From the IMG/VR virus record IMGVR_UViG_3300045044_000009, positions 7,446 through 71,445 of that record: a DNA stretch of 64,000 nt; one strand, written 5' to 3'. The notes under the pieces are model-generated. The model had not been told where the DNA came from. It saw only the letters and a list, made by a program, of their open reading frames with translations, and searched no databases. Positions 3,001-18,994 of this stretch are shown piece by piece. Source of the DNA: a virus. How positions within the stretch are numbered: position 1 is the first letter of the stretch; every line of letters begins with the position of its first letter. Both the position numbers and the translations under genes were made by a program.

Positions 3001-3803
3001 GGTGCGTAATTTGCCTGCACCCAATGCATCGTCGCGGCTTCCATCGGCGCTTGCGGATCGCGCGACAGATAGAAGGGCGCATTGACGGTGATCTGGGATT
3101 GCGTGAGCGACGTGACCCAACGGAACTGCATCCAGACGTTGTCGCCACCGCTGAGATTGTAGATGAACTGGAGAAAATTGCTGTAGGCGCCGATGCCGAA
3201 ATAAGTGTTCGCCGTAGGCGATTTCCACCAGATCGCCGGGTAGTGGTTGGTGGGAGTGTCCAGTATGAGGTTGCTGCCCCAGCCTGCCGGGCCATTCTCC
3301 GGCGCGTTGATGGTGATCCCGCCACTCATCGTGCCGCCCGTCAGCGGCAGGTAGTTCCCCAGGCTGGTATTGAGGGCATCGATCTGCTGCTTGGTCGCGG
3401 CACCAAGCGGGTCTGTCGGATTGCCCGACAGGACCAACGGTCCGGTCATCGTGGCACCAGTGAGTGGGATCACCGGCTGCCATGTCTCATCCGACCCGCG
3501 ACGGCCATATGCCTGTCCGTCCGTCGGCGCATCGGGGATGCCCGCCGAGACGCTGCGATCGAACATGATCTTCTGGCCGGTCGGATCGATGCTGGTCGGC
3601 ACCCCGATCCACACCCGCATAGGGGTGCCCATTTCGACGCAGAATTCGCCTTCTGCCAGCGAGTTCGGCGCAGGCGAATGATTGTTGGTCGCGGTGCGGT
3701 AGTGCTGGACGATATTGGTCCGTCCGGCGCTATCGACCGTGCTCCTGCCCGCAGGGCCAGGAATGAACGCAGCCGGGAAGAAGGTGCCACCGTCCATCGG
3801 CAT
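1..3803 (-). CDS. Long fibre/whisker-like structural protein, >1260 aa, truncated at the window edge
   Basis: Absent from the ORF track because there is no stop inside the window. ATG at 3803 (MPMDGGTFFPAAF...). The track lists no complete ORF in this frame, and the frame still reads as protein at base 3 (...VALQANGWRTT). Contains repeated YLPLTGGTMSG / AATKQYxD fibre motifs and a foldon-like GIPDAPTDGQAYGRRGSDETW. Confidence 0.85.
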   Translation of the reverse strand, partial: MPMDGGTFFPAAFIPGPAGRSTVDSAGRTNIVQHYRTATNNHSPAPNSLAEGEFCVEMGTPMRVWIGVPTSIDPTGQKIMFDRSVSAGIPDAPTDGQAYGRRGSDETWQPVIPLTGATMTGPLVLSGNPTDPLGAATKQQIDALNTSLGNYLPLTGGTMSGGITINAPENGPAGWGSNLILDTPTNHYPAIWWKSPTANTYFGIGAYSNFLQFIYNLSGGDNVWMQFRWVTSLTQSQITVNAPFYLSRDPQAPMEAATMHWVQANYAPIAGGGYVMKTGDSMSGPLTISPNSNSPGLIITNPTAGAWATIRLNATQAGTAAAFFGFKFGTVRWGLELASTDQETGSDTGSDFILHRHHDDGSLIDYPFRISRQNGTIQLNTPVLFGSTATLAADPTQPLQASTKQYVDALRTYTNNTFMPFTGGAFTGPVTFNPSSGYAITTVGNSLFQGNQTFTSGSTTFQTGGTGVFVNNQPLTLAGSSVLTLAHDPASAMQAATKQYTDNAISAALANYLPLTGGTLTGQLQIIPSTNVAPLVLGAGVATAWVTLQMNTPAGNTSANIYALKGGLARWRLMMPSTDPETGGNVGSDVILWAFDDTGAQIGSLPYFRIVRQTAEFRINGPLTVNGNSTLNGTLHATGAVTFDSTLTTGSTTVNGSLLATYNITAQNSLIVRTDTAKQLWFTNAANTLRWVIGTNVGSSSETGGNVGSDWVMQRFSDTGSNLGSPFTVSRATGDAAFGYALSVSGTLTVSGATTLQTTLQVNQQATFGSTVTLAGNPSTPLQAVPKQYVDNNFLPLTGGSLTGPLTIASNTQGTGGFGAQFIIQGTRPAIRFLDTSSNGWSIENYGGYFYVSVFNNAGSYQGDLLYFQADALPWSIQVLNGVNLMLDHNPTLLLEAATKQYVDLNSPAGKYVLITGDTMLGPLQMNGYQLGTLRAPVQPDDAATKFYVDLISAASYQGEWQVAPNIPDLNAKIATNANAYEWYAKLANPAVPETAPNIPGISGMLIHEGDRIIWSSVENRYDVYSGGILDQSTGDALYVFKAGDTLTGPLRFTNNTGITFSNPIAQNPQDLQGYITLWAPNYGFCITGNTLNYNSGGVHDFYCNTSLMLRVASNGIWAWTPINLPGDPTAPLQACTKQYADAIRALLNNYLPLSGGTMTGPITMSGSVPINFGSGANFINAPGKVDGAWLAGANLVLNSWFGVGLSTVCGGQAIPVGLTGIAFDTRSGNIRANGGMNLGYGATIDRMNIFANGQDVALQANGWRTT

Positions 3804-3806
3804 GTC

Positions 3807-4346
3807 TTATGACCCCCACGCCAAAAACACGCCCCTGGCCCAAGTATTCACCGTGCCGGACAGATCGACCCCCGGCGTGGTGTCCATCAAGACTTCGTAG
3901 CCGCCTGTGCCGACCAGCATCGCCCAATAGGCGTATTGCTGACCGTAGATGGTGTAATTCCACGGTCCCCATCCCTCCATCATGAACGACGCGATGTCGG
4001 AGCCGACGCTGACCTTCGACACGCTCTTGGAGGTCGGTATCCCCATCGCCATGCCGGCGGGGAACGGCATCCCCTGGCTGCGATACAGGAAGTAGCTCTG
4101 CATGGTCAGGAAGTGCGCCGTGATCAGTTCCATACCCATCGTGGAGAGACAGCCCCAGCGGCACGCATTGATCATGCAGCCCGACACATCCAGGAAGCGC
4201 TGTATCTGGGCATCCGGGAACTTCACGGTGTCGCCGAAGGCGGGGAAGTCGGTGCGGAACTGACCGACGGTCACATAGGGATTGGTCTGCGGCTGATAGG
4301 GTGGCTGGGTGGGATACGGTGCGCTAGTGAGCACGACCGCGCTCAT
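3807..4346 (-). CDS. Head-tail adaptor protein (DUF4054-like)
   Basis: FRTDFPAFGDTVKFPDAQI...WG...ELITAHFL and TIYGQQY...GTGG motifs; lies downstream of the major capsid gene. Confidence 0.75.
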   Translation of the reverse strand: MSAVVLTSAPYPTQPPYQPQTNPYVTVGQFRTDFPAFGDTVKFPDAQIQRFLDVSGCMINACRWGCLSTMGMELITAHFLTMQSYFLYRSQGMPFPAGMAMGIPTSKSVSKVSVGSDIASFMMEGWGPWNYTIYGQQYAYWAMLVGTGGYEVLMDTTPGVDLSGTVNTWARGVFLAWGS

Positions 4347-5017
4347 CGCTTGCCTGCCGCCGTCGCATAGTCGCGCGCCCTGCCGACGATCTTGTCGGGA
4401 GGACGGTCGGCGGCGAGGTTGCGCTGGCCAGCGGCGTCCTTCTTCGGTGACGGCGGTGCCTTCGGCTCCGGATAGGTGGTCGGCGTATAGCCCACTCCCG
4501 AGCCTAGGGAGCCCCAGGACGGCGGTGACCGCCTCTGGGGTGGGGAGGATAGGGACAGGCCGCCTGCGGCGTCTGTGCCGCCTGTGACCGGCTGCGCGGT
4601 GGCAGGTGGCGGTGCAGCGGGAGGCATGCTGGCGCTCGTTGGCGTCGCGGCGGCGGGCGGCATAGCCGGCGTCTGATCGCGCTCCACCGGCTTCTTCTGC
4701 CAGGGATACCCCTGCTTGCGCGCAGCGACGACCATGCGGCGGATGTCGTCCGGCTCCTCCGAGCGTTCCTCGGCGTCCGGCGTCCCGACTGGCGGCGTAG
4801 GGCTTTCGGTCTTGACTGGTCCTTCGTTCGGCAGGTTGCTATGCGTGCCGAAGATGCCTTCATCCAGACCCGGCCCGGCCTCGCCGAAGGTGGCGTCGAT
4901 GCCGGTGATCTTGCCGGCGTTCTTGGAAGCATACAGCACCGACTTCGCCTTCTTCTCCGAGCCGTAGGTCTCCTCCATCGCGTTGAGGATCTTTTCGCCC
5001 TTGGCGTTCAACGGCAT
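4343..5017 (-). CDS. Hypothetical head-region protein, Pro/Ala-rich
   Basis: ORF coupled within the operon; N-terminus MPLNAKGEKILNAMEETYG...LYASKNAGKI followed by low-complexity sequence. Confidence 0.6.
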   Translation of the reverse strand: MPLNAKGEKILNAMEETYGSEKKAKSVLYASKNAGKITGIDATFGEAGPGLDEGIFGTHSNLPNEGPVKTESPTPPVGTPDAEERSEEPDDIRRMVVAARKQGYPWQKKPVERDQTPAMPPAAATPTSASMPPAAPPPATAQPVTGGTDAAGGLSLSSPPQRRSPPSWGSLGSGVGYTPTTYPEPKAPPSPKKDAAGQRNLAADRPPDKIVGRARDYATAAGKR

Positions 5018-5875: not shown

Positions 5876-6886
5876 TCAGATGCCGTCGCGATAGCCGATC
5901 AGTTCGGGATACACGACCTCGATCATGCCGAGGCGCCCCCAGTAGGTCGTGATATTGTAGAGGCTGCGCCACTCCAACGGCGTCCTTTGCAGCGGCGTCA
6001 TCGGATAGCGGATGTAGTCGTAGTTCTTGGTATACGCGACCATGCGGTTCGCACCCGCAGCACCGCGTCCAGTCAGCCACTTGGCGGGCTGGATCTCCAG
6101 GGTCTTGCCCGCCGTGGCGGCGAGGTTGTTGTCCTGGAGGAACCGCAGGATCGACACGTTGCCCGCGCTGCTGACGATGTTGGACACCAGCAGCGAGAAG
6201 TCCGCAGGCGGCACCAGAACACGGTCTGGCATCACAGCGAAGGCGGAAGTCTGCCATACGCTGGTCAGCAGTTCGTTGATCTGGTTCAGGATGACGCCGG
6301 GGGTCTGCGCGGTGATCGCCGCCGCCCAGGTGCCTCCGGTGACGTTGGTGAGATTGGTCACCAGAGGATGATTGACCAGTCCCGCCGCGCCGACCGTGCT
6401 GTCGCCGATATACACCAACTGGTCGATGTCCATCTGGTGCTTCGTGCGGATGACCTGGAACTTCTGGTCATCGATCGGACGGCCTAGCTGCATCGCCGAC
6501 GCCAGCTCGGGCATGGTGTAGCTGAGTTCCATCCCCCAGAGGAACAACGGCTGCGGTGTCTTGCCGATGTCCAACTGAGCGCCTGTGATCGTGTTGGTGT
6601 CCTTGGCGATCCAGGCGATGCCAGCGGGGTTGATGCCACCAGCGGCAGCGAAGCTGCTGTTGGTGTAGGACGAATATTCATCGCCCACCGTCACGTCTTC
6701 GCGGAGGTCGATGTCGCGGCCCCAGGTCACCGTGAACAGCGGGCCGTGCAATGTCTGGTCGAGGCGTTCGAGTTCCCCGATCAGGAAGGCACCTGTGCTG
6801 TCCTTGGTATACAGGCCGTCGTAGGTGAACATCGGCGACCTGCCCATCGGCGGGCCGCCGTTGTGGCCGATCATGTCCAAAGGCAT
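5876..6886 (-). CDS. Major capsid protein (DUF2184 family)
   Basis: GAFLIGELERLD...TWGRDI...GMELSYTMPEL motifs, 336 aa, follows the scaffold and cement genes. Confidence 0.9.
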   Translation of the reverse strand: MPLDMIGHNGGPPMGRSPMFTYDGLYTKDSTGAFLIGELERLDQTLHGPLFTVTWGRDIDLREDVTVGDEYSSYTNSSFAAAGGINPAGIAWIAKDTNTITGAQLDIGKTPQPLFLWGMELSYTMPELASAMQLGRPIDDQKFQVIRTKHQMDIDQLVYIGDSTVGAAGLVNHPLVTNLTNVTGGTWAAAITAQTPGVILNQINELLTSVWQTSAFAVMPDRVLVPPADFSLLVSNIVSSAGNVSILRFLQDNNLAATAGKTLEIQPAKWLTGRGAAGANRMVAYTKNYDYIRYPMTPLQRTPLEWRSLYNITTYWGRLGMIEVVYPELIGYRDGI

Positions 6887-6900
6887 GACCTATCCTTTCA

Positions 6901-7404
6901 TCAGAGGTTGTAGGCGATCTCGGTCATGCCGTTGGCATCCGCCGGACCCATGAATGTGCCGTTGACCGCGAGCACGGTAGCTCCCGGTGCCGCGCCGGTC
7001 ACACCGCCCGCAGGATTGCCTGCCGACGCCGTGCCGATGAACACCCCGAGCGGCTGTCCCTTGGCGACCGCAGGACTGGCGGCGTTGAGCTTCACCGTCA
7101 TGTAGCCCCGCTTCAGCACGTCGCCATGGCCGGTCGTCGGCGGCGTGGCCTGATATAGCGGGTCGTTCATGGACAGGTTGCTCTGGCGCGGATACGGACG
7201 GACGAAGAAGCCCGCGAACGTCGCCGCCGTGTCGGTCCCGGTCGGCGGCCTGACCGTGCCCGTCGCGGCATCCATGACCAGCATCACGCCGTATCCGAGC
7301 GGCGGCGTGGTGGTGTTGAGCAGTTCGGCCTGGACGGTCGCATCGTGGATGCGATTGACCGCCCCCGGATAGCCGACATCCATGCGGTAGAGGAAAGCTA
7401 CCAC
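6901..7404 (-). CDS. Capsid cement/decoration protein
   Basis: FLYRMDVGYPGAVNR...FVRPYP...LKRGYMTV...GPADANGMTEIAYNL; immediately upstream of the capsid gene. Confidence 0.75.
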   Translation of the reverse strand: MVAFLYRMDVGYPGAVNRIHDATVQAELLNTTTPPLGYGVMLVMDAATGTVRPPTGTDTAATFAGFFVRPYPRQSNLSMNDPLYQATPPTTGHGDVLKRGYMTVKLNAASPAVAKGQPLGVFIGTASAGNPAGGVTGAAPGATVLAVNGTFMGPADANGMTEIAYNL

Positions 7405-7917: not shown

Positions 7918-9012
7918 TTATGCGACCCTCCTTGGTCCCATGTTGGTCACGCCCTGCTTGGTCCAGTAATCGTGGTTGGCGGAGTTGATGCCGCGCACGA
8001 TCTCGACCTGCCTGCTGCGATGGGCGCGCAGATCGCCCGCCATGTCACCGAACATCGGTGACGGCACGCTGGCGGCATTGTTCATGGCACGCATCTTCGC
8101 CGAAGCGTCCGCGAAGATGATGCGCATGGCGTCGTAAGACATGCCGCCGACCGACGGTGCATAGTTGCCGAGGATCTCCTTGCCCTTGTCGGTCTTCGCC
8201 AATTCCACCAGAGCGTTGCGCCGCAGGCCGTGCAGACGCTTCTGGGTCTCCGGCCACTTGGCCTCGCCGCCTGCATCCAGCGTCGGAACCTTGATGCCGG
8301 GATGCAGGATTTCGGCCCGAGCGACAGTATCGCGGACGATATTGCCGATCGCCTGGAGGGTGCGGCTCTTGTAGGCAGCATCACCCATCCGGGTCTTCTC
8401 CTGCTTCAAGGCAGGATCGGCCTCGACCAGTTCTGCGGACGATGCGGGCGGCTTGCTCATGGTGAGACCGCTTTCGCCGTTCTCATTGCCCATGTGCATG
8501 AGATCGCCACCGAGGTCGCTGTCCTCAGACTTCTGCTCGAAGTGCTCCTTGACCTCTGCCGGCATCTCGCCGTCTTCGGTCTCGGGTGTCTCCGGCTTGT
8601 CCTCGCCCTCTTTGCCCCAGTTCTTCTTGAAGCCTTCGGGGAGGTCGGCATCGCGGATGCCCATCTTGTCCGCCATGCGGCCAAGCACGGCACCGATGCC
8701 CTTCACGCCGTCTTCCAGCTTCGTCACGCGATCAGCCAGAGCGCTGTCGCCGTTGCCGCCCGCATGCTCGACATGGATGTGGACATTCTGCGGGTGCTTG
8801 CCCTCATCCCCGTCCGGCTCCCTGTGGCCGGTGTCTTCGTCAGGCGGCACCTGGACGGTGGCCTCCTGTTCTTCCGCCTCATCGGCGAGGCGCGCGAATG
8901 TCGCCTTGTCCTTGGCAAAAAACGCGCGGCTCATCCAATCGCGGATGTTCCGCTTACTCACGTCTATGGCCCTCCTTTTCGCCACGCAGCGATCACACAG
9001 ACAGTCGCTCAT
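7918..9012 (-). CDS. Probable capsid scaffolding protein
   Basis: Acidic, charged and helical; AEILxPGIK and INxANxxYW-type C-terminus resembles the scaffold region of DUF2213 proteins; position upstream of cement and capsid genes. Confidence 0.6.
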   Translation of the reverse strand: MSDCLCDRCVAKRRAIDVSKRNIRDWMSRAFFAKDKATFARLADEAEEQEATVQVPPDEDTGHREPDGDEGKHPQNVHIHVEHAGGNGDSALADRVTKLEDGVKGIGAVLGRMADKMGIRDADLPEGFKKNWGKEGEDKPETPETEDGEMPAEVKEHFEQKSEDSDLGGDLMHMGNENGESGLTMSKPPASSAELVEADPALKQEKTRMGDAAYKSRTLQAIGNIVRDTVARAEILHPGIKVPTLDAGGEAKWPETQKRLHGLRRNALVELAKTDKGKEILGNYAPSVGGMSYDAMRIIFADASAKMRAMNNAASVPSPMFGDMAGDLRAHRSRQVEIVRGINSANHDYWTKQGVTNMGPRRVA

Positions 9013-9215
9013 ATCTCGGCATCCTCGGGTGGCGTATCGAGGCCGAGCATTCCGTAGAACTGGTTGTCATCATCGAACGGGACGCCGATCTGCGCAGCTA
9101 TCGCCAGCAGTTCCATCGCCGCCTCCAATTGCTCCTGCGACAGCCCGGAGATAGTCGGGCAATCGCCGAATTTGTCCTTGTAGTCGTGAGCGGCCTGCAA
9201 CGGATCGTCGCTCAT
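9009..9215 (-). CDS. Small acidic protein (possible immunity or partner of the upstream metallopeptidase)
   Basis: 68 aa, D/E-rich, 4-nt overlaps with both neighbours. Confidence 0.5.
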   Translation of the reverse strand: MSDDPLQAAHDYKDKFGDCPTISGLSQEQLEAAMELLAIAAQIGVPFDDDNQFYGMLGLDTPPEDAEI

Positions 9216-10723
9216 GGCTTCCTCGTTTGCTCGTATTTGCCGCTGCCGATGTCGGCGATGATCCGGTCACACTCGGCGCAGAAGTTCGGTGCCAGCGAAT
9301 GCATGACCGCGCGATACACCTTACCGCCAGGCCCGTTGGTCAGATCGACGTAATTGGCGAATGCTTCGGAGCACTTGGTGTGCGGTCGCGCTGCGTAATA
9401 GCTGTCCGCATGCCCCTGGCCGACCACGTTGCCGGTGAGCGACCCGATGAAGTCCTCGAAGTTGGTCCGCTCCTGACCGACCGCAGCGCCACGCGACACG
9501 TTGCGCCAGCCTGCCAGCGATCCGCCAGAGAGCACCGCATTCAAGGACGCGATACGCATCGGTTCGGACTGCGCGTGGATTTCCAAATCATCGTATGACA
9601 GACCGAGTTGCTTGGCGGTCTTCGACAACGCTCCCTCGGCCCCCACTGTCGGGAACATACCGCCCTTGCGATAGCGTTCGATGATGCTCGCAGCGTCCTT
9701 CTTGCGCGCCTCCTCGCCACGGATAAACGACAGCGGCTTCTTGTCCCAGCCAGTCTCCGGCGCGTTGCCGTAGTCCATCGCGTGACCGAATTCATGGCGC
9801 CATGTATTGGCGTTGCCCCGATCGGGTTGGCCCATACTGATCATGTGCTTATTCGCCATGTAGTAGGCCCCGGCCTTTTCCCGGTGGCTGATCTCGGTCA
9901 GCCTCGGCGTGCGCTGCACCGCCGCCATCGTTGTCCCGGACGCATTGCCCCAGGACTGCTCGTGATAGGCCCGCTCGCGCGGGAGCCAGTCCGTCCTGTT
10001 GGCGATGACCTCGGCGATGTTCTTCGGCGCATTCGCGATCGGCGGCGGTGGTTCCAGCTTGGGCGGCGGTTCGATCGCCCTCGGCGGCGTCTTCGGTGGC
10101 TCGGGTTCGCTCGGCGCAGGCGGCAGCTTCGGCGGCGTCCTGCCCGCCTCCTTGTAGATGTGCGCCACCAGCTTGCGGGCGTAGCCCTGGACGCCGCTGT
10201 GCTTCCACCTGGAAGCCATCTGCATGATCTGGACTTCCGCCTCGTGCGGATCTGTGCCTTTGTCCAGAAGCGCTTGAGCGAGCTGCGCCAGCTTCGGTGC
10301 CGCCGTCTTCGACCAGGATGACTTCGGTGGCGGCTCGGGGATCGGTGCCGCGTCCGGTCCCTCCTCCTTCGCCGCACGCGCCTCCCTGCCCGCTGCCGCC
10401 CGCTCCCTGCCCGCTGCCGCTGCCTCGGCGGCTCCCGCACCGCCTTCGCCCTTGCGGACGAACTGACCGCCCTTGCCAGAGCCTTTCATCCCTCGTGGAT
10501 GCTGGTTTTCCAGCCACGAGGCGTCGTCCTCGGTGTCGATGTCATCGTCCTGCGGATAGTCGATGTCCTCGGCGCTGGCGAATTGCTGGTCGAGCATCGC
10601 GCGCAGTTCTTCCTCGTAGGCGTCCAGGTCCTTCTGGAACTCGGCAAGCACCTCGGGTGGCACATCGACCTCTGTGCCCTCCGGGACTTCGATGTCGTCG
10701 GCGTCGGGCGCGTCGCTCACCAC
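9212..10723 (-). CDS. Virion-associated polyvalent-type protein with zincin metallopeptidase domain
   Basis: HEFGHAMD (HExxH, 9782-9796) plus distal SEAFANY; acidic N-terminus, HPR linker and Pro-rich spacer. Confidence 0.7.
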   Translation of the reverse strand: MVSDAPDADDIEVPEGTEVDVPPEVLAEFQKDLDAYEEELRAMLDQQFASAEDIDYPQDDDIDTEDDASWLENQHPRGMKGSGKGGQFVRKGEGGAGAAEAAAAGRERAAAGREARAAKEEGPDAAPIPEPPPKSSWSKTAAPKLAQLAQALLDKGTDPHEAEVQIMQMASRWKHSGVQGYARKLVAHIYKEAGRTPPKLPPAPSEPEPPKTPPRAIEPPPKLEPPPPIANAPKNIAEVIANRTDWLPRERAYHEQSWGNASGTTMAAVQRTPRLTEISHREKAGAYYMANKHMISMGQPDRGNANTWRHEFGHAMDYGNAPETGWDKKPLSFIRGEEARKKDAASIIERYRKGGMFPTVGAEGALSKTAKQLGLSYDDLEIHAQSEPMRIASLNAVLSGGSLAGWRNVSRGAAVGQERTNFEDFIGSLTGNVVGQGHADSYYAARPHTKCSEAFANYVDLTNGPGGKVYRAVMHSLAPNFCAECDRIIADIGSGKYEQTRKP

Positions 10724-10836
10724 CGTGGCTCCTCAGGGGCCACCTTGTCGGCGACAAGAAGCGCCATCGTCATGATCCCGATGAAGCCACCGGAGAAGAA
10801 AGCGGCGAACAGCCAGGGCCACCAGATCATCGGCAT
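10717..10836 (-). CDS. Small membrane protein (39 aa)
   Basis: Read by eye: MPMIWWPWLFAAFFSGGFIGIMTMALLVADKVAPEEPRW; its stop overlaps the start of the metallopeptidase gene. Confidence 0.4.
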   Translation of the reverse strand: MPMIWWPWLFAAFFSGGFIGIMTMALLVADKVAPEEPRW

Positions 10837-10936
10837 TCCTGTCGGTCAAAGGTCTCACCGGCAAACGCCTCACAGGAAGGGGCAAGCGGAGACTGTCTCG
10901 CACAGGCCGCGAGGAGACACAGGACCACGATCCATC

Positions 10937-11239
10937 TCATGGCATCTCGGTCCCGGAAGCGGCGGCGTAGAACGCCATCTCCGCGCCGAGGTTCACGCCA
11001 TAGTCCCGCTGGAACGTCTGCACGCCGGCCTGATGCAGCTTATCGTGGTGGTAGCGGCACAACGGCACCACGTCCTTGTCGGACGGCTTCAATGCGGTCC
11101 CGGCATTCGCGGCACTGCGGACATGATGCGCCTCGGACGGCCACCTGCCGCACTCGGGCACACAGCACGGCTGGTGCCTGATCCAGGCCAGATGGTCAGT
11201 ATTTGAACGAGCCGACGTAGGCTTTCTGCGCTGCCGCAT
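10937..11239 (-). CDS. DUF968 / HNH-like zinc-binding protein
   Basis: WIRHQPCCVPEC...EAHHVR...PLCRYHHDKLH pattern. Confidence 0.7.
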   Translation of the reverse strand: MRQRRKPTSARSNTDHLAWIRHQPCCVPECGRWPSEAHHVRSAANAGTALKPSDKDVVPLCRYHHDKLHQAGVQTFQRDYGVNLGAEMAFYAAASGTEMP

Positions 11240-13256
11240 TGTTATATCTCAGGTGTAGGTGGAAACCGTCATAGCGATAGATGTCGGCGGTCTTGGTGTC
11301 AGGGTTCAGGATGGTGGTCATCGTGATACCTTTGACCTTCGGACCATACTTCTTCTTGTATTCGTCCAGGACCGCCTGCTTGCGATCCATGATGGCTTGC
11401 AGCTTCTTTTGGTTCCACGCAGCCTTCTTCACCGGACTGGCTTTTGCCAGCCACGCGCGCTCGGCCTTCCCCGGCATGCCGATGGTCGCGCGCCACTTCT
11501 GCGCCCCCTTGCTGTTACTCACCAGCCCGGTCTTCGCCTCGATCAGCATGTGGTCGCCGATCAGGTCGACCGGGAAGTTCGTGGTCTTCAGGTTCAACGG
11601 CCTCGCGTCCTTCAGGCCCATGAACTGCTTCAGGTAATTGACGATCACCGCCTCGCCGATTTCGCCGGTCTCCAATTTGGATAGCTGCGTCTTGGTCGGG
11701 ATCGGCTCTCCGGTGAAGGCTCGGGTGCTAGTCTGTTTCAGGCTGCCGACCTGCTTCGCGAGTGCCGCAGATCGCTGCGCCGCCTCGGTGTGCTTGACCG
11801 CCGCCTCCTGGGCCTTGCCCGCCTGCTCGCGCGCCTCGGCCTTGCCCTCGCGGCCTGACGCCTCGCGCTCCTTCTTCGCCTGCACGCCCTCGCCGATGCC
11901 GCCGCCGGAGCCTTTGACGAACTCGCCGCCCTTGCTGGTCCCCTTGGCCCCGCGTGGGTGCTTGGTCTCCTCGAAGGCGTCTTCGGTGGTCGCCCCGCCG
12001 ATGATATGTGCCACGACATGCGTGCGACCGCCCTCATTGCTCTTGCTGGCGATCCGATACTGATGACCGCCTAGCAGGACTTCGTGTTCGTCGCGAGTGC
12101 CGCCCTGCTGCAAGCCCTGGACATACAGACCATGCGTGCCCTTCGGGGCATGCAATTCCAGGAGACCGGGATCGGCATAGTCCATATTGCCGTGCGCGAC
12201 CTCGTGAGACAGGCTGGTCGAGGTCATGCGCCGGTTGTTATAGGTCTCCCCGACCTTCATCCGCCGCAGCCGTGCGCCGAGCGTGCCGTGATAGAGCGTC
12301 GCGTCGACCGGCGTCCGCGCCTCGCCGATCGCTGTCGAGAGGTTCCGCCGCTGCGTGGGCGACAGGTAATTCGCCCCCCTGGTGTAGGTCTCCACGGCCT
12401 CGCGATGCTCCGGCGGCATCCTGGCGATGTGCGCCGCGGCGTGCTCTGCGAACTTGCCCGCTTGGTCCCGAGGATGTTCGCTCTCCTCGAAACCGTCACC
12501 AAAAGGGTGATCGATGTCCTCGTCCCACCAGGGATCGATGTCCGTCAGCCACTCGGGCCGGGAGAACTCGCGTTCGATGTCCAATTCTGCGTTGTGATAG
12601 CCCTCACGGAACCGCTCGACCTCGCCATGCTCGCCGACATGGAATTCGCCCATGCCGGTCTCGACATGGATGCGGTGACCGCTCGTGGTCTTCCCAGGAA
12701 AGTCCAGGTCGCCCGTGTAGACCGTGAAGCCGTCCATGATCGTGCAGCGACCGCCGCAGCGGCCTTCGTCCACCAGCGCCACATGGTTGCAGTGGATGTC
12801 CTTCTGCCGCCCGAGGCCCGGTGCCGTCTGCTCATAGAAGGCGTTGTATCCAACGCTGATCGCCCGCTTGCCGCCCTTCACGGCATCGATCCCACGCTGA
12901 CAGGTGAAGATCATGTCGGCGATCAGCAGATCGTCGTTCAAGTTCGTGCCCCGACGCGGGTTGCTCACATAGCCGATGGCGAGTTCGTGCCAGTTGCCCG
13001 GACCCACCGGCTCGGACGGATGGTCGTCGCAGATCGGTTTGCCGATGAAACTCTGGACGCTGGCAGGCTTGAACACCTCCGAGGCGTCCCGCGCGACATG
13101 CACCCTGCCGCCCGCGTCGCCTTGCAACGGCGGCACCTCGTGTTCAAAATAAATCTGCGTCCCGGTGCGGGCGATCGGCACATCACGGACGACCAGATAG
13201 CCTTCATCCGTCAGTTCCATGTGCGGCGACAGCCGGGAGACCGTGTGCCACTCCAT
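11196..13256 (-). CDS. DUF2213 (putative prohead protease) fused to an ADP-ribosyltransferase-like domain and a PD-(D/E)xK nuclease-like domain
   Basis: Likely start MEWHTV at 13256 after a GGGGG RBS. N-terminal TDEGYL..RDVPIARTG..Y / SVGY / NHVALVDEGRCG is DUF2213. LYHGT, STS and EHE form an ART core. GEIGE..PVDLIGDHMLIEAKTG is a restriction-endonuclease-fold motif. Confidence 0.8.
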   Translation of the reverse strand: MEWHTVSRLSPHMELTDEGYLVVRDVPIARTGTQIYFEHEVPPLQGDAGGRVHVARDASEVFKPASVQSFIGKPICDDHPSEPVGPGNWHELAIGYVSNPRRGTNLNDDLLIADMIFTCQRGIDAVKGGKRAISVGYNAFYEQTAPGLGRQKDIHCNHVALVDEGRCGGRCTIMDGFTVYTGDLDFPGKTTSGHRIHVETGMGEFHVGEHGEVERFREGYHNAELDIEREFSRPEWLTDIDPWWDEDIDHPFGDGFEESEHPRDQAGKFAEHAAAHIARMPPEHREAVETYTRGANYLSPTQRRNLSTAIGEARTPVDATLYHGTLGARLRRMKVGETYNNRRMTSTSLSHEVAHGNMDYADPGLLELHAPKGTHGLYVQGLQQGGTRDEHEVLLGGHQYRIASKSNEGGRTHVVAHIIGGATTEDAFEETKHPRGAKGTSKGGEFVKGSGGGIGEGVQAKKEREASGREGKAEAREQAGKAQEAAVKHTEAAQRSAALAKQVGSLKQTSTRAFTGEPIPTKTQLSKLETGEIGEAVIVNYLKQFMGLKDARPLNLKTTNFPVDLIGDHMLIEAKTGLVSNSKGAQKWRATIGMPGKAERAWLAKASPVKKAAWNQKKLQAIMDRKQAVLDEYKKKYGPKVKGITMTTILNPDTKTADIYRYDGFHLHLRYNNAAAQKAYVGSFKY

Positions 13257-14213: not shown

Positions 14214-14921
14214 TCAGTGGTGATCGCAGACCCGGCCTCGCAGGCAACCGAGAAGGACTAGACCAACGCCGAGCAGCGCGAGGGACGCAGGCTCGGGCGC
14301 ACTGGTCTGCTGAACCTGGCAATCGACACCGAGCGTGCAAGCAAGGATGCGCGGCTGCTTCAGATCATTCCAGCCGAATTGCTGGGTGCCATTCTGCACG
14401 CTCTCGAAAATCTTCACGTCGGTGATCGCCTCGTTGGTGCCGCTCACCGCATCAACGCGGAAGAAGTTGGAACCCTGCGTCAACGTGTCAGTGAAGATGT
14501 TGCCGAAATTGTCCTCGGCAACGATGCCGACGATGCCTTCGCCAAAGTCCAGGTTGAAGATCATGGTGGTGGCCGCGACAGGCGCGACCATCCTGATCTC
14601 CAGTCCGGTCAACTGCGCACCGTTAGCGCCGCCCTGGCTGAATGGATTGCAATTCGCCGTGCAGATGATATCCGCCTGCCCCGCGCCGGTAGTGCCGATT
14701 TCCTCTGGACCGTAGGTCGAGCCGTTGCGGTTCAGGTTGAGGAACTGGACAGTGTTGGCACCCTTGTTGGTGTCGCCGCTGATGGTTCCCTGGTTCGAGG
14801 TGTGCTGCTCGAATTGCACGACATCGCCGGTCGATCCACCGGCGGCGGTGATCACAAGCGTAGCATTAGCGGCAGCAGGCAGCATGGTCGCGAAGGCACT
14901 GGCGAGTAGCAATCTGCGCAT
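14214..14921 (-). CDS. PEP-CTERM sorting-domain protein
   Basis: N-terminal signal peptide (MRRLLLASAFATMLPAAANA) and C-terminal APEPASLALLGVGLVLLGCLRGR. Confidence 0.85.
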   Translation of the reverse strand: MRRLLLASAFATMLPAAANATLVITAAGGSTGDVVQFEQHTSNQGTISGDTNKGANTVQFLNLNRNGSTYGPEEIGTTGAGQADIICTANCNPFSQGGANGAQLTGLEIRMVAPVAATTMIFNLDFGEGIVGIVAEDNFGNIFTDTLTQGSNFFRVDAVSGTNEAITDVKIFESVQNGTQQFGWNDLKQPRILACTLGVDCQVQQTSAPEPASLALLGVGLVLLGCLRGRVCDHH

Positions 14922-14937
14922 GGAACGTTCCCCCTGT

Positions 14938-16386
14938 TCACGGAGTGATCGTAAGCACCCGCACCGTCGCCGGCAAGGCGATCTGCAACGCGTCGGTGGC
15001 GCCGTGGTCCGTCTGCGCCCCAGAGAGCAGATCGGTCTCGGTGACGGTCATCCGATACGGCAGGGATACGCTCACCGTCTCCGCCTGTCCGCCCGCCTCC
15101 GGCTCGCTGTGCCAGAGGAACAGGGAGAACCTGCCGACGGCGCTCTCCGCCAGCAGCCAGTCGCAGCGCTCAGAACCTCCGGAGACCTGCACGTCCAGGC
15201 TGTCAGGCTCGAATGTCCGCCGCTCATCGTCCTTATCGGGGCAGGCGGTGCAGAGGTTGCGGATCGCCTGCGCAGCCGGACGTGGATTGCTGGCGTTCAC
15301 CGGGAACAGGCCGCAGATATACACCGTGCCGTAATCGAACAGCGCATACCACCACAGGCCGTCCACGCCGCATTTCGCCGCACGCAGCAACGCCAGCAGG
15401 GTGTAATACGCGTCCCGATCGCCGCTCCATGCCTGATTGACCGGAACCTCCGTCTTGCGTTCGCCGACCGCCGACTGACCCCGCTTCGGCCCCACGCGCT
15501 GCGCCTGTGCCGACATCGCTTGCGCCGATGGCTGATGGCCGTCCGAATTATACAGCGTCGGATGGAACTCGGTCAGCGCGATCACGTGCTGGCCATACGC
15601 CGTCCAGAGGCCGCCGACATATTCGCTGAGGCTGGTGCCGTCGCCCGTGAGATCGGGACAATGCGGCGGATAATAGTGGCCGTTGCCGATCGCCATCGCC
15701 TCGTTGACCTCGGCCATGCGGTCCCCGAAATAGCCGGTGATCCAGCCCTCCGGATGCGGCATCCCGGCGACCACGCTCGGCCCCATGGTCGGTGTGGCGT
15801 CCTTGTAGACCGCATGCTGGATCGCCATCGTCTGCTCGACCGGCACCATGCCTGAGCCGAAATCCGTGTTCGGCTCGTTCAGCCCCTCGAACCAATCGGC
15901 GAAGTCCGCCATCGACAGCATCGACGGCACATCATCCACGTTGCCGTTCGCCGCCACACAGAGGGTGATCCGCGTGTCCGGCAACGCCGCCCTGATCTGC
16001 GCCAGCCAGGGCTGCTGGAAGCTCTCGTATCCACTGTAGTGATACTCGCGCAGCCGCAGACTGTGCCCGCTGTCGTTGGTCATCCATTGCAGCGCAGCGA
16101 TCACCTGCTCCGGTCGATAATCGGCAGGCCAACTGCCCCAGCGATTATTTTCGTCCATCGAGGAGAACGTGTTGACGCCGAACGTCTCCACCACATCGGC
16201 GATGCGCATGGCCTTCGTGCCGGTCCCGGACGATGGCGGTCGGTCTGGCTCCGGTGGTTGCGGAGCGGTGCTGCCGTCCCCCTCCAACACCGCGACGCGG
16301 CCTTCCAGATCGTCCACACGGACGACCAGGGCATCGAACTCCTCGCGGGTCGGCACATCGACCTGCGGCGTCGGGCTGCGTGCCAT
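14938..16386 (-). CDS. Putative clan GH-A glycoside hydrolase with short N-terminal coiled coil
   Basis: EGLNEPN acid/base motif (15872-15880), later LTEFH candidate nucleophile, TIM-barrel-sized core and beta-rich C-terminus; N-terminal heptads REEFDALVVRVDDLEGRVAVLEG. Confidence 0.65.
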   Translation of the reverse strand: MARSPTPQVDVPTREEFDALVVRVDDLEGRVAVLEGDGSTAPQPPEPDRPPSSGTGTKAMRIADVVETFGVNTFSSMDENNRWGSWPADYRPEQVIAALQWMTNDSGHSLRLREYHYSGYESFQQPWLAQIRAALPDTRITLCVAANGNVDDVPSMLSMADFADWFEGLNEPNTDFGSGMVPVEQTMAIQHAVYKDATPTMGPSVVAGMPHPEGWITGYFGDRMAEVNEAMAIGNGHYYPPHCPDLTGDGTSLSEYVGGLWTAYGQHVIALTEFHPTLYNSDGHQPSAQAMSAQAQRVGPKRGQSAVGERKTEVPVNQAWSGDRDAYYTLLALLRAAKCGVDGLWWYALFDYGTVYICGLFPVNASNPRPAAQAIRNLCTACPDKDDERRTFEPDSLDVQVSGGSERCDWLLAESAVGRFSLFLWHSEPEAGGQAETVSVSLPYRMTVTETDLLSGAQTDHGATDALQIALPATVRVLTITP

Positions 16387-16390
16387 GGGT

Positions 16391-17269
16391 TCACTCCGTC
16401 ACGATGGGAAGCGCCACACACCGGCAGTTCCAAATCTGGCCGGGATGGCTGTGGTGGTCGGGCGGATCGGACAGCGGCGGATCATCCCAGCGCTGCACCG
16501 TGTTATTCAGCTTGCGATGGCTCTCCCGGACCCGCGCATCGCCTGCCGTCTTCCAGATATAGCTGTCCACGCCGATCGATCGCGCCCGCGCCTCGGTCAG
16601 CACGCTCGCCGTCCTGGCGGTCTCGGTGCGGGCAATCAGCGTGGCGCGGCTGCGCACCCATTCCTCCGTCGCCTTCGGATGCGCTTGCGCGAGCATGGCT
16701 TCGATTTCGGCCTGCTGCTCGGGATAGCGCGAAGCGTGGTTCAGCGCCTCGATGGTCCGTTCGTGGATCCTCTGTGCGGCTTCCAGCGGCAGGCTGGTGA
16801 TGAGTTGCACCTGATACGCCATCAGGGCCTCGACCATGCCACCGACATACGATCCGGTGCTGCGCAGTTCGGCCCGCAGCGCCGCCGACATGCCGCGCGT
16901 ATGCCGTTCCCAGGCGGTGCGGTTCCTGCGATCGACCTCAGCGATCATCCGTGCGGTCGCCGCTCTGGCCCACGGGGCGATGGCGGCGGAATACTGGCGC
17001 ATCGCATGGTCGATGCGGGCGATCTGACCGGGCTGGAACGGCTCTCCCGGTGGCGGTGCATGCGCCTCCACGATATGGGCGACGTGCTGTGCCAGACGAC
17101 GGAGCGCGGCACCGAAAGACCGCTGGGCGGCATGCTGACGGGAAAACCGCTCCTCGGCGCGCGCCTCTGCCTGCTCCCGCCGCTGGCGCTCGCGTCGCTC
17201 CCGTGGTGTCTCAGGACGCCGGGCCACTCTGCGGCACCTGATCCTTGTCATAGACCGAGACGCCGCCAT
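16391..17269 (-). CDS. Minor head / head morphogenesis protein (MuF, SPP1 gp7-like), short form
   Basis: RATLIARTET...YIWKTAGDARVRESH...HPGQIWNCRC motifs; no C-terminal extension. Confidence 0.9.
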   Translation of the reverse strand: MAASRSMTRIRCRRVARRPETPRERRERQRREQAEARAEERFSRQHAAQRSFGAALRRLAQHVAHIVEAHAPPPGEPFQPGQIARIDHAMRQYSAAIAPWARAATARMIAEVDRRNRTAWERHTRGMSAALRAELRSTGSYVGGMVEALMAYQVQLITSLPLEAAQRIHERTIEALNHASRYPEQQAEIEAMLAQAHPKATEEWVRSRATLIARTETARTASVLTEARARSIGVDSYIWKTAGDARVRESHRKLNNTVQRWDDPPLSDPPDHHSHPGQIWNCRCVALPIVTE

Positions 17270-17441
17270 CCAACGCCTGGATCGCCTTGCCCAGCCGCAT
17301 CGAAGCGTCTTCCAGGTGCCGATAAGCCAGCATGACGTTGGCGACGGCCTCGCCGTTCCATTCGTTCTGCACCAGAGGCCGCAGGCGATCAGCGGTGGAT
17401 TTGATTTCGCGCCGCAGCGCCTCGCAGTCCGCGACCTTCAT
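17211..17441 (-). CDS. Small helical-hairpin protein, possibly Acb2/Tad1-like
   Basis: 76 aa, two predicted helices; LAYRHLEDASMRLGKAI resembles the AxTxLEEAxMWxxxAI helix of Acb2/Tad1-type proteins. Confidence 0.4.
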   Translation of the reverse strand: MKVADCEALRREIKSTADRLRPLVQNEWNGEAVANVMLAYRHLEDASMRLGKAIQALDGGVSVYDKDQVPQSGPAS

Positions 17442-18994
17442 TCCTTGCCTCCTACGCTACGCAATGTCGGCTGCGGGGGCGTCCCGCCGCTCGGAGGCCG
17501 CATACCACCCGGCTGACCGCCGCCACCACCACCGAACGGTGACGGTTTGCCTTGGCCCTGTGCCCCAAGCATCCCAGGCATCCCCTGCTGCTGCGCCTCC
17601 GGGTCCCATGGTGCCGGGGCTTCCTCGCTGTCCTTGATGTCCTTGTCCGTGATGTTGGTGAACCGCCCGGTCATGATGGAATTCTGTTTGAGTTCTTTCA
17701 GGGCGATCGTCGTGGTGATGATCCCGGCGTCGTGCAGGAGTTTCAACGTATCGGCGTCGCGCTGGGCGATCTCGGCCTTGGCGTTCTCGTCCGGCTCATC
17801 GATCGATCGGAAGCCGAAGTTCCAGGTATCCGGCGGCTGCCTGCCGAGTTCGCTCTGCCACATGACCTTGAATATCCGGGTCAGCGGTCGGCGCACGCGT
17901 GCCTCCTGCGTCGCCTTGATCATGCTCTCGTAAATCCGCCAGTCGCTATCGCCCGTGGCATTCATCCCCGCAGGCGATTGTCCGAACAGGCGGGTGAGCG
18001 GAATGCCGAGTGCGCCAGCGATCTGCTGGCCGATCATCTGCAAGGTGTCGGGGACGCCTGCGAAGGAATACTGATGCGTCTCGAACTCGTCTTCCTTGTC
18101 GATGACCGTCAGGCCCTCATTGGTTTGCAGATACCGCATCAACTCCATGGTGCGATGGAAGCGCTGCTCCAATTCACCGCCGGCACCAATTAGCTTGCGG
18201 TAGCCATCTACCTTGTAGGTTCGGAGATAAGCCTTATAGAGAAGCTGGCTGGCGCCCATGGTGCCGCTGTCGAAGGCCAGCAATCGGTCGTAGAGCCGTT
18301 CGATGACGGACATGCCCCAGCCGTTTTCTGCGAGACGCTGACGGAATGGCAGGGCGATGCCGTCCATTCTGAGGATACGGCTGTAGTGGATGCGCTGCTT
18401 CGGCATGAACGGGGCCGACTGCACCACGTCATAAAAGACCGGAAGGCCATAGTCGGGTCCAAATTCCTGGATCAGGTGGCTATAGGTCGGCTGCACCATC
18501 CAACGATCCAAGACGATGAAGCCCTTCAAAGCTCCTTGTGGCACGCGTTCGGGAATGAGCGGCGTCGCCATGTCCTGGCCATCGATCGCCAACACCATCA
18601 GCGCGCCGCCATAAAGCCGGGACCATTTGATGGTCTCATTCAGACTTTGCCACAGATACAGGTTATTCATCGCCGTCTGTATCTGTTCAATCTGGTCGGG
18701 CGGCGTCTCCGAGTTCATCTGCACACCAGACCGCGTCATGTCGTCCGCCACCACATCGACCGCAGCGCCGACCACCCATGAGCCGCGATATGCCCATTCG
18801 AGCAACTGCTGAAGGCGGCTGATCGGGAAATAATTCTGCGTGGTCTCGGTCAGCAGATTGCCAGCGCCCAATCCGATGCGGGCGGCGAAATTCACCACAT
18901 TGTCCCCGACATAGATCAGCCGCTCGCCCTCGGGGTTCGCTGCGGTGCCAGCGCGCATAGTGATACGAGGCTTCGGTGGCACTTGGTCACTCAT
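17438..18994 (-). CDS. Portal protein (DUF1073 family)
   Basis: YRGSWVVGAAVDVVADDMTR...WSRLYGGA...GIPLTRLFGQSPAGMNATGDSD motifs. Confidence 0.9.
   Translation of the reverse strand: MSDQVPPKPRITMRAGTAANPEGERLIYVGDNVVNFAARIGLGAGNLLTETTQNYFPISRLQQLLEWAYRGSWVVGAAVDVVADDMTRSGVQMNSETPPDQIEQIQTAMNNLYLWQSLNETIKWSRLYGGALMVLAIDGQDMATPLIPERVPQGALKGFIVLDRWMVQPTYSHLIQEFGPDYGLPVFYDVVQSAPFMPKQRIHYSRILRMDGIALPFRQRLAENGWGMSVIERLYDRLLAFDSGTMGASQLLYKAYLRTYKVDGYRKLIGAGGELEQRFHRTMELMRYLQTNEGLTVIDKEDEFETHQYSFAGVPDTLQMIGQQIAGALGIPLTRLFGQSPAGMNATGDSDWRIYESMIKATQEARVRRPLTRIFKVMWQSELGRQPPDTWNFGFRSIDEPDENAKAEIAQRDADTLKLLHDAGIITTTIALKELKQNSIMTGRFTNITDKDIKDSEEAPAPWDPEAQQQGMPGMLGAQGQGKPSPFGGGGGGQPGGMRPPSGGTPPQPTLRSVGGKE

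Follow-up and report, generated by a model that had tools for sequence, protein, structure and literature searches.

A conserved peptide tag precedes each of three cargo modules in the head-gene cluster of a phage genome

The virus record IMGVR_UViG_3300045044_000009 of IMG/VR is linear, 75,005 bp long and 100% complete by CheckV, and the stretch analysed here (the window) covers 64,000 nucleotides of it at a G+C content of 62%. Its head genes form a cluster on the minus strand, ordered from the portal through MuF to the major capsid protein. Between the portal/MuF side and the scaffold, cement and major capsid genes sit two cargo genes, P0001 and P0002, in which a short peptide motif of the form [FW]-x-E-x-x-H-P-R...G-x-F, hereafter the tag, stands ahead of each of three modules: an ADP-ribosyltransferase (ART), a nuclease and a candidate metallopeptidase. 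The genes and features concerned are as follows.

11196..13256, minus strand: P0001 gene, DUF2213-tag-ART-tag-nuclease; the open frame extends back to 13307
12732..13214, minus strand: DUF2213 / Pa193 gp24 N-terminal domain (PF09979, phrog_530, phrog_1961)
12426..12518, minus strand: tag copy 1, at the DUF2213/ART junction (P0001 aa 264-294), core FEESEHPRDQAGKF, short-loop class, profile score 34.2 bits
11997..12425, minus strand: ART module (P0001 aa 295-437, PF03496)
11892..11996, minus strand: tag copy 2, at the ART/nuclease junction (P0001 aa 438-472), core FEETKHPRGAKGTSKGGEF, long-loop class, profile score 38.6 bits
11211..11669, minus strand: PD-(D/E)xK nuclease module (P0001 aa 547-699), preceded by a long predicted helix (aa 473-519)
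9212..10723, minus strand: P0002 gene, with acidic leader (aa 1-60), tag copy 3, Ala/Pro-rich spacer and HEFGH module (aa 225-503)
10544..10723, minus strand: P0002 acidic leader (aa 1-60)
10433..10543, minus strand: tag copy 3, at the junction of the acidic leader and the HExxH module (P0002 aa 61-97), core WLENQHPRGMKGSGKGGQF, profile score 45.1 bits
9215..10051, minus strand: HEFGH...EAFANY module of P0002, a candidate zincin-like metallopeptidase
7918..9012, minus strand: scaffold-like gene P0050, matching phrog_1961 positions 182-416

The probable start of the P0001 gene is the ATG at 13256, which gives a protein of 686 aa and matches database record P0003. Translation of the minus strand confirms all three tag copies of the original prediction: copy 1 (12450-12497) reads DGFEESEHPRDQAGKF, copy 2 (11919-11981) reads DAFEETKHPRGAKGTSKGGEF, and copy 3 (10460-10525) reads DASWLENQHPRGMKGSGKGGQF, the end first assigned to it, 10528, taking in one extra Asp. 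Translated in all six frames, the 64 kb contain the string E-x-x-H-P-R three times and no more, once in each of these copies, and the full pattern likewise occurs exactly three times there, against a chance expectation roughly estimated at ~0.04. A profile of the motif run over the entire 75,005-bp record returned the same three sites (E 1e-14 to 7e-11) and no fourth. The closeness claimed for copies 2 and 3 despite their separate genes also holds, at 46% identity over 54 aa (E 3e-8), and extends into a Gly-rich and charged stretch past the motif. The H-P-R codons of the three copies read CAT CCT CGG, CAC CCA CGC and CAT CCA CGA, and because they differ among all three, what is conserved is the peptide, which points to selection at the peptide level rather than to a recent DNA repeat. 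At copy 2, AlphaFold2 (AF2) predicts a short helix and a hairpin with a predicted local distance difference test (pLDDT) score of ~75, versus ~50 in the flanks. Past this copy and its Gly-rich spacer, a long charged single helix is confidently predicted (11751-11891, minus strand; P0001 aa 473-519), and a similar Ala/Arg/Glu-rich stretch follows tag 3. The modelled helix after tag 2 may be a coiled-coil or a spacer that accompanies the long-loop tag.

Among homologues of the cargo part of P0001, about 28 of 46 have the motif where domains join, and elsewhere the nuclease module is headed by the variants Q-P-R and N-P-x-H-D..G-R-F. A profile built from 29 aligned tag instances over 36 positions was run against 1.84 billion representatives of 50%-identity clusters, drawn from ~15 billion proteins. 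At E<=1e-3 there are 3,622 matching cluster representatives, of which 542 reach E<=1e-10 and 22 reach E<=1e-30; the best proteins carry up to 20 tag stretches and are up to 7,334 residues long. The profile search and tabulation of downstream domains proposed with the original prediction bear out its modular part, in that the tag always precedes a domain-sized module. Local re-scanning of the 150 best census matches together with the first matches yielded 681 tags in 174 proteins. Most of these tags are internal, with a median spacing of 248 aa between them (5-95% range 109-692); only 2.7% of the 174 proteins have <40 aa beyond the last tag, and in 44% the first tag lies within 60 residues of the N-terminus, at residue 3 in some. 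The domain-sized spacing, the rarity at the C-terminus and the N-terminal share together indicate that the tag is a leader, neither a trailer nor a mere spacer.

The tag is ~20-35 residues long, and over 659 instances its consensus is A-A-[W56/F34]-[D55]-E88-S-K-H97-P98-R-[D42/G31]-loop-G-x-[FW], followed by a Gly/Ala/Ser-rich stretch; the His is conserved in 97%, the Pro in 98%, the Glu in 88% and the aromatic residue in 93%. The loop measures 3, 6 or 8 residues in 59%, 17% and 14% of instances, respectively. The three length classes retain identical anchor residues and are mixed in 78 of 155 multi-tag proteins, as they are in P0001. No Pfam or NCBIfam model covers the tag, and its profile has no match at E<=10 among all PDB sequences. 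Searches by tblastn of 50,697 cultured-phage records with the tag alone and with the nuclease module found none, a failure to be expected for so short a query as the tag. Motif strings looked for in the literature, including papers on polyvalent proteins and MuF toxins, turned up no description, within an incomplete coverage of that literature.

What the tag joins was surveyed on both of its sides. In a random 148 of the modules that follow a tag, the families recognised were ART (two families), GNAT, topoisomerase IB, NUDIX, Acb1, ParB-like nuclease, LAGLIDADG and PFIN; the majority of the 148 belong to no Pfam family, and none matched a peptidase family. Among 67 regions before the first tag, those that are recognisable comprise two portal families, MuF, DUF2213, S78 protease, NUDIX, 2H, InPase and Acb1, and conjugative-element domains occur neither in the 148 modules nor in the 67 regions. 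Nuclease modules of the P0001 type are fused to four portal families, MuF, S78 and DUF2213, tags are present in MuF-toxin fusions among the sampled proteins, and in the cultured Pseudomonas phage Orisa03 (PP179327; host P. syringae 7C) the portal is followed by an acidic linker, SDADFDENKHPRSDDGKF and then an ART, all in one 704-aa protein (gene 2270-4381). Tagged proteins can also be free-standing: P0176 and P0113, with N-terminal tags, lie in head-gene clusters with a portal and/or MuF gene adjoining, and P0085, also with an N-terminal tag, lies between a 790-aa gene of no assigned identity and a capsid gene. The suggested tie to head-internal proteins is thus upheld by fusions to portal, MuF, DUF2213 and S78 proteins, and the tag, which stands ahead of such modules in thousands of phage proteins, probably marks proteins carried in the phage head. 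A tag within P0113 (aa 198-226; L009 8001-9332) matches positions 996-1024 of the PHROG portal profile phrog_113, so this profile probably includes portal-tag-cargo fusions from sequenced phages.

That the tag is a modular element at which cargo is swapped, as the original prediction held, is borne out by related complete phages as well as by the census. The comparison set consisted of 80 DUF2213 genes from IMG/VR. In 16 of the 20 closest DUF2213 proteins (L014-L033), a tag comes directly after the domain and cargo follows; all 60 of the more distant ones are canonical, tag-free proteins of 379-541 aa (one of 203 aa). The complete relatives G004 and G005, with canonical DUF2213-scaffold genes, have no tag, and the tag-free relatives are also without cargo. 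The complete relative L010/G001 (75,088 bp), which shares 70-80% DNA identity with the window over the head-gene cluster, encodes a DUF2213-tag-nuclease protein that lacks the ART. P0001 aligns to P0008 in two parts, aa 18-280 with aa 1-272 and aa 445-703 with aa 265-545, and because both parts end on the single tag of P0008, the ART cassette sits between two tags where the relative has one. Modules have been gained and lost at breakpoints within tags, the ART module is missing from P0006-P0009, and two further unrelated modules occupy the ART slot, one in P0005 and the other in P0010/P0020. Similarly, the P0002 leader exists in L010 as a stand-alone 78-aa acidic gene (3702-3938), whose product ends ..EDIDYPEGEK* precisely where P0002 runs on into its tag and HEFGH module; by blastn, window positions 10541-10697 match L010 3746-3902 at 77% identity. 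The HEFGH module recurs in P0175 as part of a DUF2213-led polyprotein, and in L029 a gene boundary falls immediately before the tag. Where relatives have one DUF2213-scaffold gene, the window has three cassettes (tag-ART, tag-nuclease and tag-HExxH), and cassettes of tag plus enzyme are, as read from these alignments, inserted, deleted, split and fused at the tag.

The N-terminal domain of P0001 matches PF09979 over aa 32-192 (E 3e-43, 148.1 bits against a cut-off of 22). His79, Ser134 and His158 are invariant in 68 homologues, and the AF2 model of the domain is poor. The PHROGs annotation of the DUF2213 families is head maturation protease; Pa193 gp24 has been called a putative scaffolding protein only, and residues 286-326, in its C-terminal part, bind the capsid interior (PMC11456595). 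The canonical DUF2213 protein, such as Burkholderia phage Magia gp05, joins a protease-like domain, an acidic linker and a scaffold domain in one polypeptide. In the window the scaffold part is split off as gene P0050, the counterpart of the C-terminal half of these fusions, with the motif ARAEILxPGxKxPTLD common to P0050 and Magia gp05, and the cargo lies between DUF2213 and P0050. An acidic element with repeated D-I-D-[YFW]-P stands before tag 1 (12498-12560, minus strand) in P0001 as well as in its close relatives, and the P0002 leader consists of it too; this lineage-specific element may tie the proteins that carry it to scaffold or capsid. With alignments of 68 rows for the DUF2213 domain and 29 rows for the tag, prediction of a complex of the two scored 0.02 against a mark of 0.32, which counts neither for nor against binding.

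Each copy had been said to precede a distinct enzymatic domain, and three different modules do follow the three copies, the nuclease being backed by its fold, the ART by its profile match, and the peptidase identity of the third partly supported. The ART scores 29.4 bits against PF03496 (cut-off 23.4) and has the STS and E-H-E motifs, with His in place of the usual first Arg: it reads LYHGT (~12100-12200, minus strand; P0001 ~aa 375-380) against the catalytic LYRG of the ARTs of Orisa03 and P0015. The ART of P0004 has the same His, and the window enzyme may have an altered chemistry or be inactive. In P0004, a decayed tag at aa 88-101, WQESDVKRDQIGRF, with H-P changed to V-K, precedes an ART 61% identical to that of the window; individual tags can, by this example, be lost. 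The second cargo module is modelled at a pLDDT of >90 (in AF2 of full-length P0003, the nuclease domain alone reached good confidence), its fold matches NhoI, I-Ssp6803I and Hjc (Z 9.1, 8.6 and 8.0, over 101-119 residues), and D, E and K are invariant in 38 sequences; on the modelled fold it is a PD-(D/E)xK nuclease with a restriction-endonuclease fold. For the third module, HEFGH and the downstream Glu of EAFANY are conserved with the single homologue found, that of P0175, and protein-atlas leads point to M90, ATLF and LPD1. It has no Pfam match, two word-indexed searches with P0002 returned P0002 itself as the sole match, and an AF2 model from a two-row alignment (pLDDT 38) is unusable; its identity as a peptidase is partly supported, by motifs, one homologue and the atlas leads.

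One proposal, which we give about an even chance of being right, is that the tag is a processing or release signal for cargo inside the head and possibly docks anchorless cargo as well. The tag would form the N-terminal boundary of each effector cassette added to proteins of the procapsid interior (portal, MuF, DUF2213, S78 protease and small scaffold-adjacent proteins) or encoded beside them. The anchor rather than the tag would carry fused cargo into the head, and the tag would serve a need common to all cassettes, whatever the anchor or enzyme. Most likely, cargo would be recognised at the tag within the head and cut from the anchor and from neighbouring modules. T4-type prohead proteases cut hydrophobic-x-Glu sites, which the [WF]-x-E of the tag resembles, and the candidate scissile site lies after this Glu, so that H-P-R...G-x-F would be left on the released module. 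The tag may additionally dock cargo that lacks an anchor, in the manner of the T4 capsid targeting sequence (CTS).

Several properties of the tag argue for release. An anchor already ensures encapsidation, yet the tag is kept behind it and before every module, which makes a role in packaging alone insufficient. Furthermore, cargo tethered to a portal has to be severed from it before it can exit along with the DNA, and internal tags are therefore most economically explained as release signals. Anchorless proteins with a tag at their extreme N-terminus suggest that this element is recognised during loading as well, in the way of the T4 CTS, and the mixture of loop classes in half of the multi-tag proteins implies that one machinery must read all variants. 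Weighing against the proposal, both the cleavage and the docking of the tag are putative, as is the protease activity of DUF2213. The anchors span several head-assembly lineages (four portal families, S78 and DUF2213), and in several tagged head-gene clusters no protease is recognisable by Pfam, so that a single conserved phage-encoded reader is hard to name. Free-standing proteins with a tag at residues 3-10 would gain little from a cut, and a cleavage-only role does not explain their extreme N-terminal tags. Finally, conservation is higher in H-P-R and G-x-F than at the putative P1 Glu, and the main function may therefore lie elsewhere. A broader version of the release proposal, in which the tag is a portable, near-universal address and release label for proteins inside the heads of tailed phages, read by conserved head machinery across unrelated lineages, is possible but tentative, and we would sooner bet against it.

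Two activities suggested by the tag sequence were rejected. The variant F-N-P-x-H-D..G-R-F resembles the N-P-T-H loop at which the switch proteins of type III secretion cleave themselves; since the H-P-R form lacks the Asn, self-cleavage of this kind cannot be the shared function. AT-hook-like DNA binding is suggested by P-R-G-Q-P-K in the long-loop class, but Asp follows the Arg in 42% of tags.

Rather than a site of cutting, the tag could be purely a packaging signal that docks on a component of the procapsid interior, loads the cargo and is never cut. The N-terminal position of 44% of first tags, some from residue 3, would fit this, as would the free-standing tagged proteins that lie inside head-gene clusters without a recognisable anchor, and the local structure that AF2 predicts at the tag with a confidence above that of its flanks. 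One tag would suffice for docking, however, yet up to 20 are conserved per protein and tags remain behind covalent anchors; a conserved receptor would also be needed across unrelated portal, capsid and scaffold families. We regard docking without cleavage as unlikely, though not negligible.

Action of the tag after ejection, in the infected cell, as a handle for the portal or tail channel, a refolding nucleus, a host-factor site or a degron, would account for its independence from lineage, anchor and enzyme type and for the provision of one copy per module. No positive evidence points this way, the sequence has no match to a testable host-factor motif, and the exact coincidence of gene and module boundaries with the tag would be left unexplained; we think it quite improbable. 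Slightly less credible again is a passive linker or recombination scar, common because cassettes share descent and recombine there. The breakpoints inside tags and decayed copies such as that of P0004 are what a scar would leave, but the His, Pro and Arg are near invariant over thousands of 50%-identity clusters whose flanks cannot be aligned, the anchor residues are the same in all three loop-length classes, and the three local copies differ at synonymous sites, so DNA homology has not been kept.

The least probable account makes the tag the cleavage site of a zincin metallopeptidase encoded in the cargo itself, here the HEFGH module of P0002. In its favour, MPTase domains have been proposed to divide polyvalent proteins into their units (Iyer et al. 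2017, PMC5512222), HExxH occurs in 73 of 662 modules, which is above chance by rough estimate, and the P0002 module is itself tag-led and in P0175 part of the polyprotein. A cargo-encoded peptidase is nevertheless unlikely as the general processor: the complete, cultured Orisa03 has portal-tag-ART and no HExxH protein of at least 120 aa, neither of the complete relatives with tags, G001 and G002, has a homologue of the P0002 module, and no peptidase family appeared in the 148 sampled modules, though other families may go unrecognised there.

The remaining genes of the cluster, in cluster order, are as follows.

17438-18994, minus strand: portal gene (PF06381)
16391-17269, minus strand: MuF gene (292 aa), just after the portal in cluster order
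Between MuF and P0001, minus strand: a 482-aa gene and a 235-aa gene
Between P0001 and P0002, minus strand: a small HNH-like open reading frame (ORF)
Between P0050 and the cement protein gene, minus strand: a 161-aa gene
6901-7404, minus strand: cement protein gene
5876-6886, minus strand: major capsid protein gene (PF09950)

In the interval from MuF to DUF2213 (14214-16386, minus strand), the 482-aa protein has no family match and the 235-aa protein is a PEP-CTERM protein. In a related complete phage three small unrelated ORFs replace them (L010 594-1344), and the two genes look like accessory inserts (morons) in the head operon. The small ORF between P0001 and P0002 (10937-11239, minus strand; 100 aa) matches DUF968 and HNHc_6, of the HNH nuclease type, and overlaps the 3' end of P0001; a DUF968-like ORF stands at the equivalent place in a related phage (L010 3099-3254), and this one could be a homing-type or packaging-associated HNH. 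A 68-aa ORF with no family match (9009-9215, minus strand) overlaps the P0002 stop and the start of the scaffold-like gene.

Enzymes packaged in the T4 head, one of them an ART, begin with the CTS, a short leader that directs them to the prohead core and has a prohead-protease site at its end; it occurs once per protein, at the N-terminus, in one phage lineage. The tag is likewise a short leader on head enzymes, ART among them, and its [WF]-x-E resembles the hydrophobic-x-Glu site of the CTS. Unlike the CTS, to which it bears no sequence relationship, the tag is internal as well as N-terminal, repeats up to 20 times, spans many head-assembly lineages and is cleaved only putatively; the local copies are all internal, starting at aa 264 and 438 of P0001 and aa 61 of P0002. 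Demarcation motifs such as VENN in CdiA are said, in a description credited to Zhang and colleagues in 2012, to precede the variable toxin domain of polymorphic toxins. Like the tag, motifs of this type are short conserved peptides that mark a recombination point for exchanged modules; the tag differs from them in sequence, in delivery by a phage head rather than a secretion system, and in its repeats within one protein.

Phage-type polyvalent and head-fused effectors bring together ART, restriction-endonuclease-fold nuclease, metallopeptidase, Nudix and 2H domains, in one polypeptide or as fusions to MuF, portal or capsid-processing peptidase; their genes stand alongside those of the virion, packaging and injection are predicted for them, and fusions of this sort are read as a sign of head packaging (Iyer et al. 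2017, PMC5512222; Iyer et al. 2022, PMC9503650). P0001, with at least two effector-type domains (ART and nuclease fold, with DUF2213) and a location among virion genes, fits this description in these two respects. A precedent for presence in virions is phi24B gp47, which has been detected there (bioRxiv 10.64898/2026.04.10.717836). The polyvalent-protein papers treat domains and architectures, and searches of their text find no conserved inter-module leader (PMC5512222, PMC9503650); the tag is a separate element that marks where modules start. MuF polymorphic toxins combine a conserved head-associated N-terminal part with variable C-terminal toxin domains (Jamet et al. 2017, PMC5576092; Bxa, PMC11699363), and a junction motif is not described in these papers. 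A conserved head part with variable cargo is common to both systems; in the window DUF2213 and a small acidic protein serve as anchors, and the MuF protein itself (292 aa) has no extra domain or cargo. The overall architecture is therefore a known theme of polyvalent and head-fused phage effectors, and what is new is the conserved tag within it.

Head-packaged effectors, among them anti-defence enzymes, ARTs and nucleases, are a growing theme in phage biology, and outside T4 we know of no understanding of how they are loaded, separated and released. The tag offers an entry point to this mechanism, and it explains how cargo is shuffled between phages. The window provides a clean natural comparison, since complete genomes closely related to it have one cassette or none where it has three, and Orisa03, with its portal-tag-ART protein, is a cultured phage in which the function of the tag is directly testable. 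The tag is also a sequence handle with which to catalogue candidate injected proteins, most of which belong to no known family, and a possible tool for loading proteins into phage capsids. If it were indeed a near-universal address and release label, the sequence of any phage would reveal its repertoire of injected effectors, and ~30 added residues would suffice to load an arbitrary protein into a capsid, making the tag the capsid counterpart of the signal peptide.

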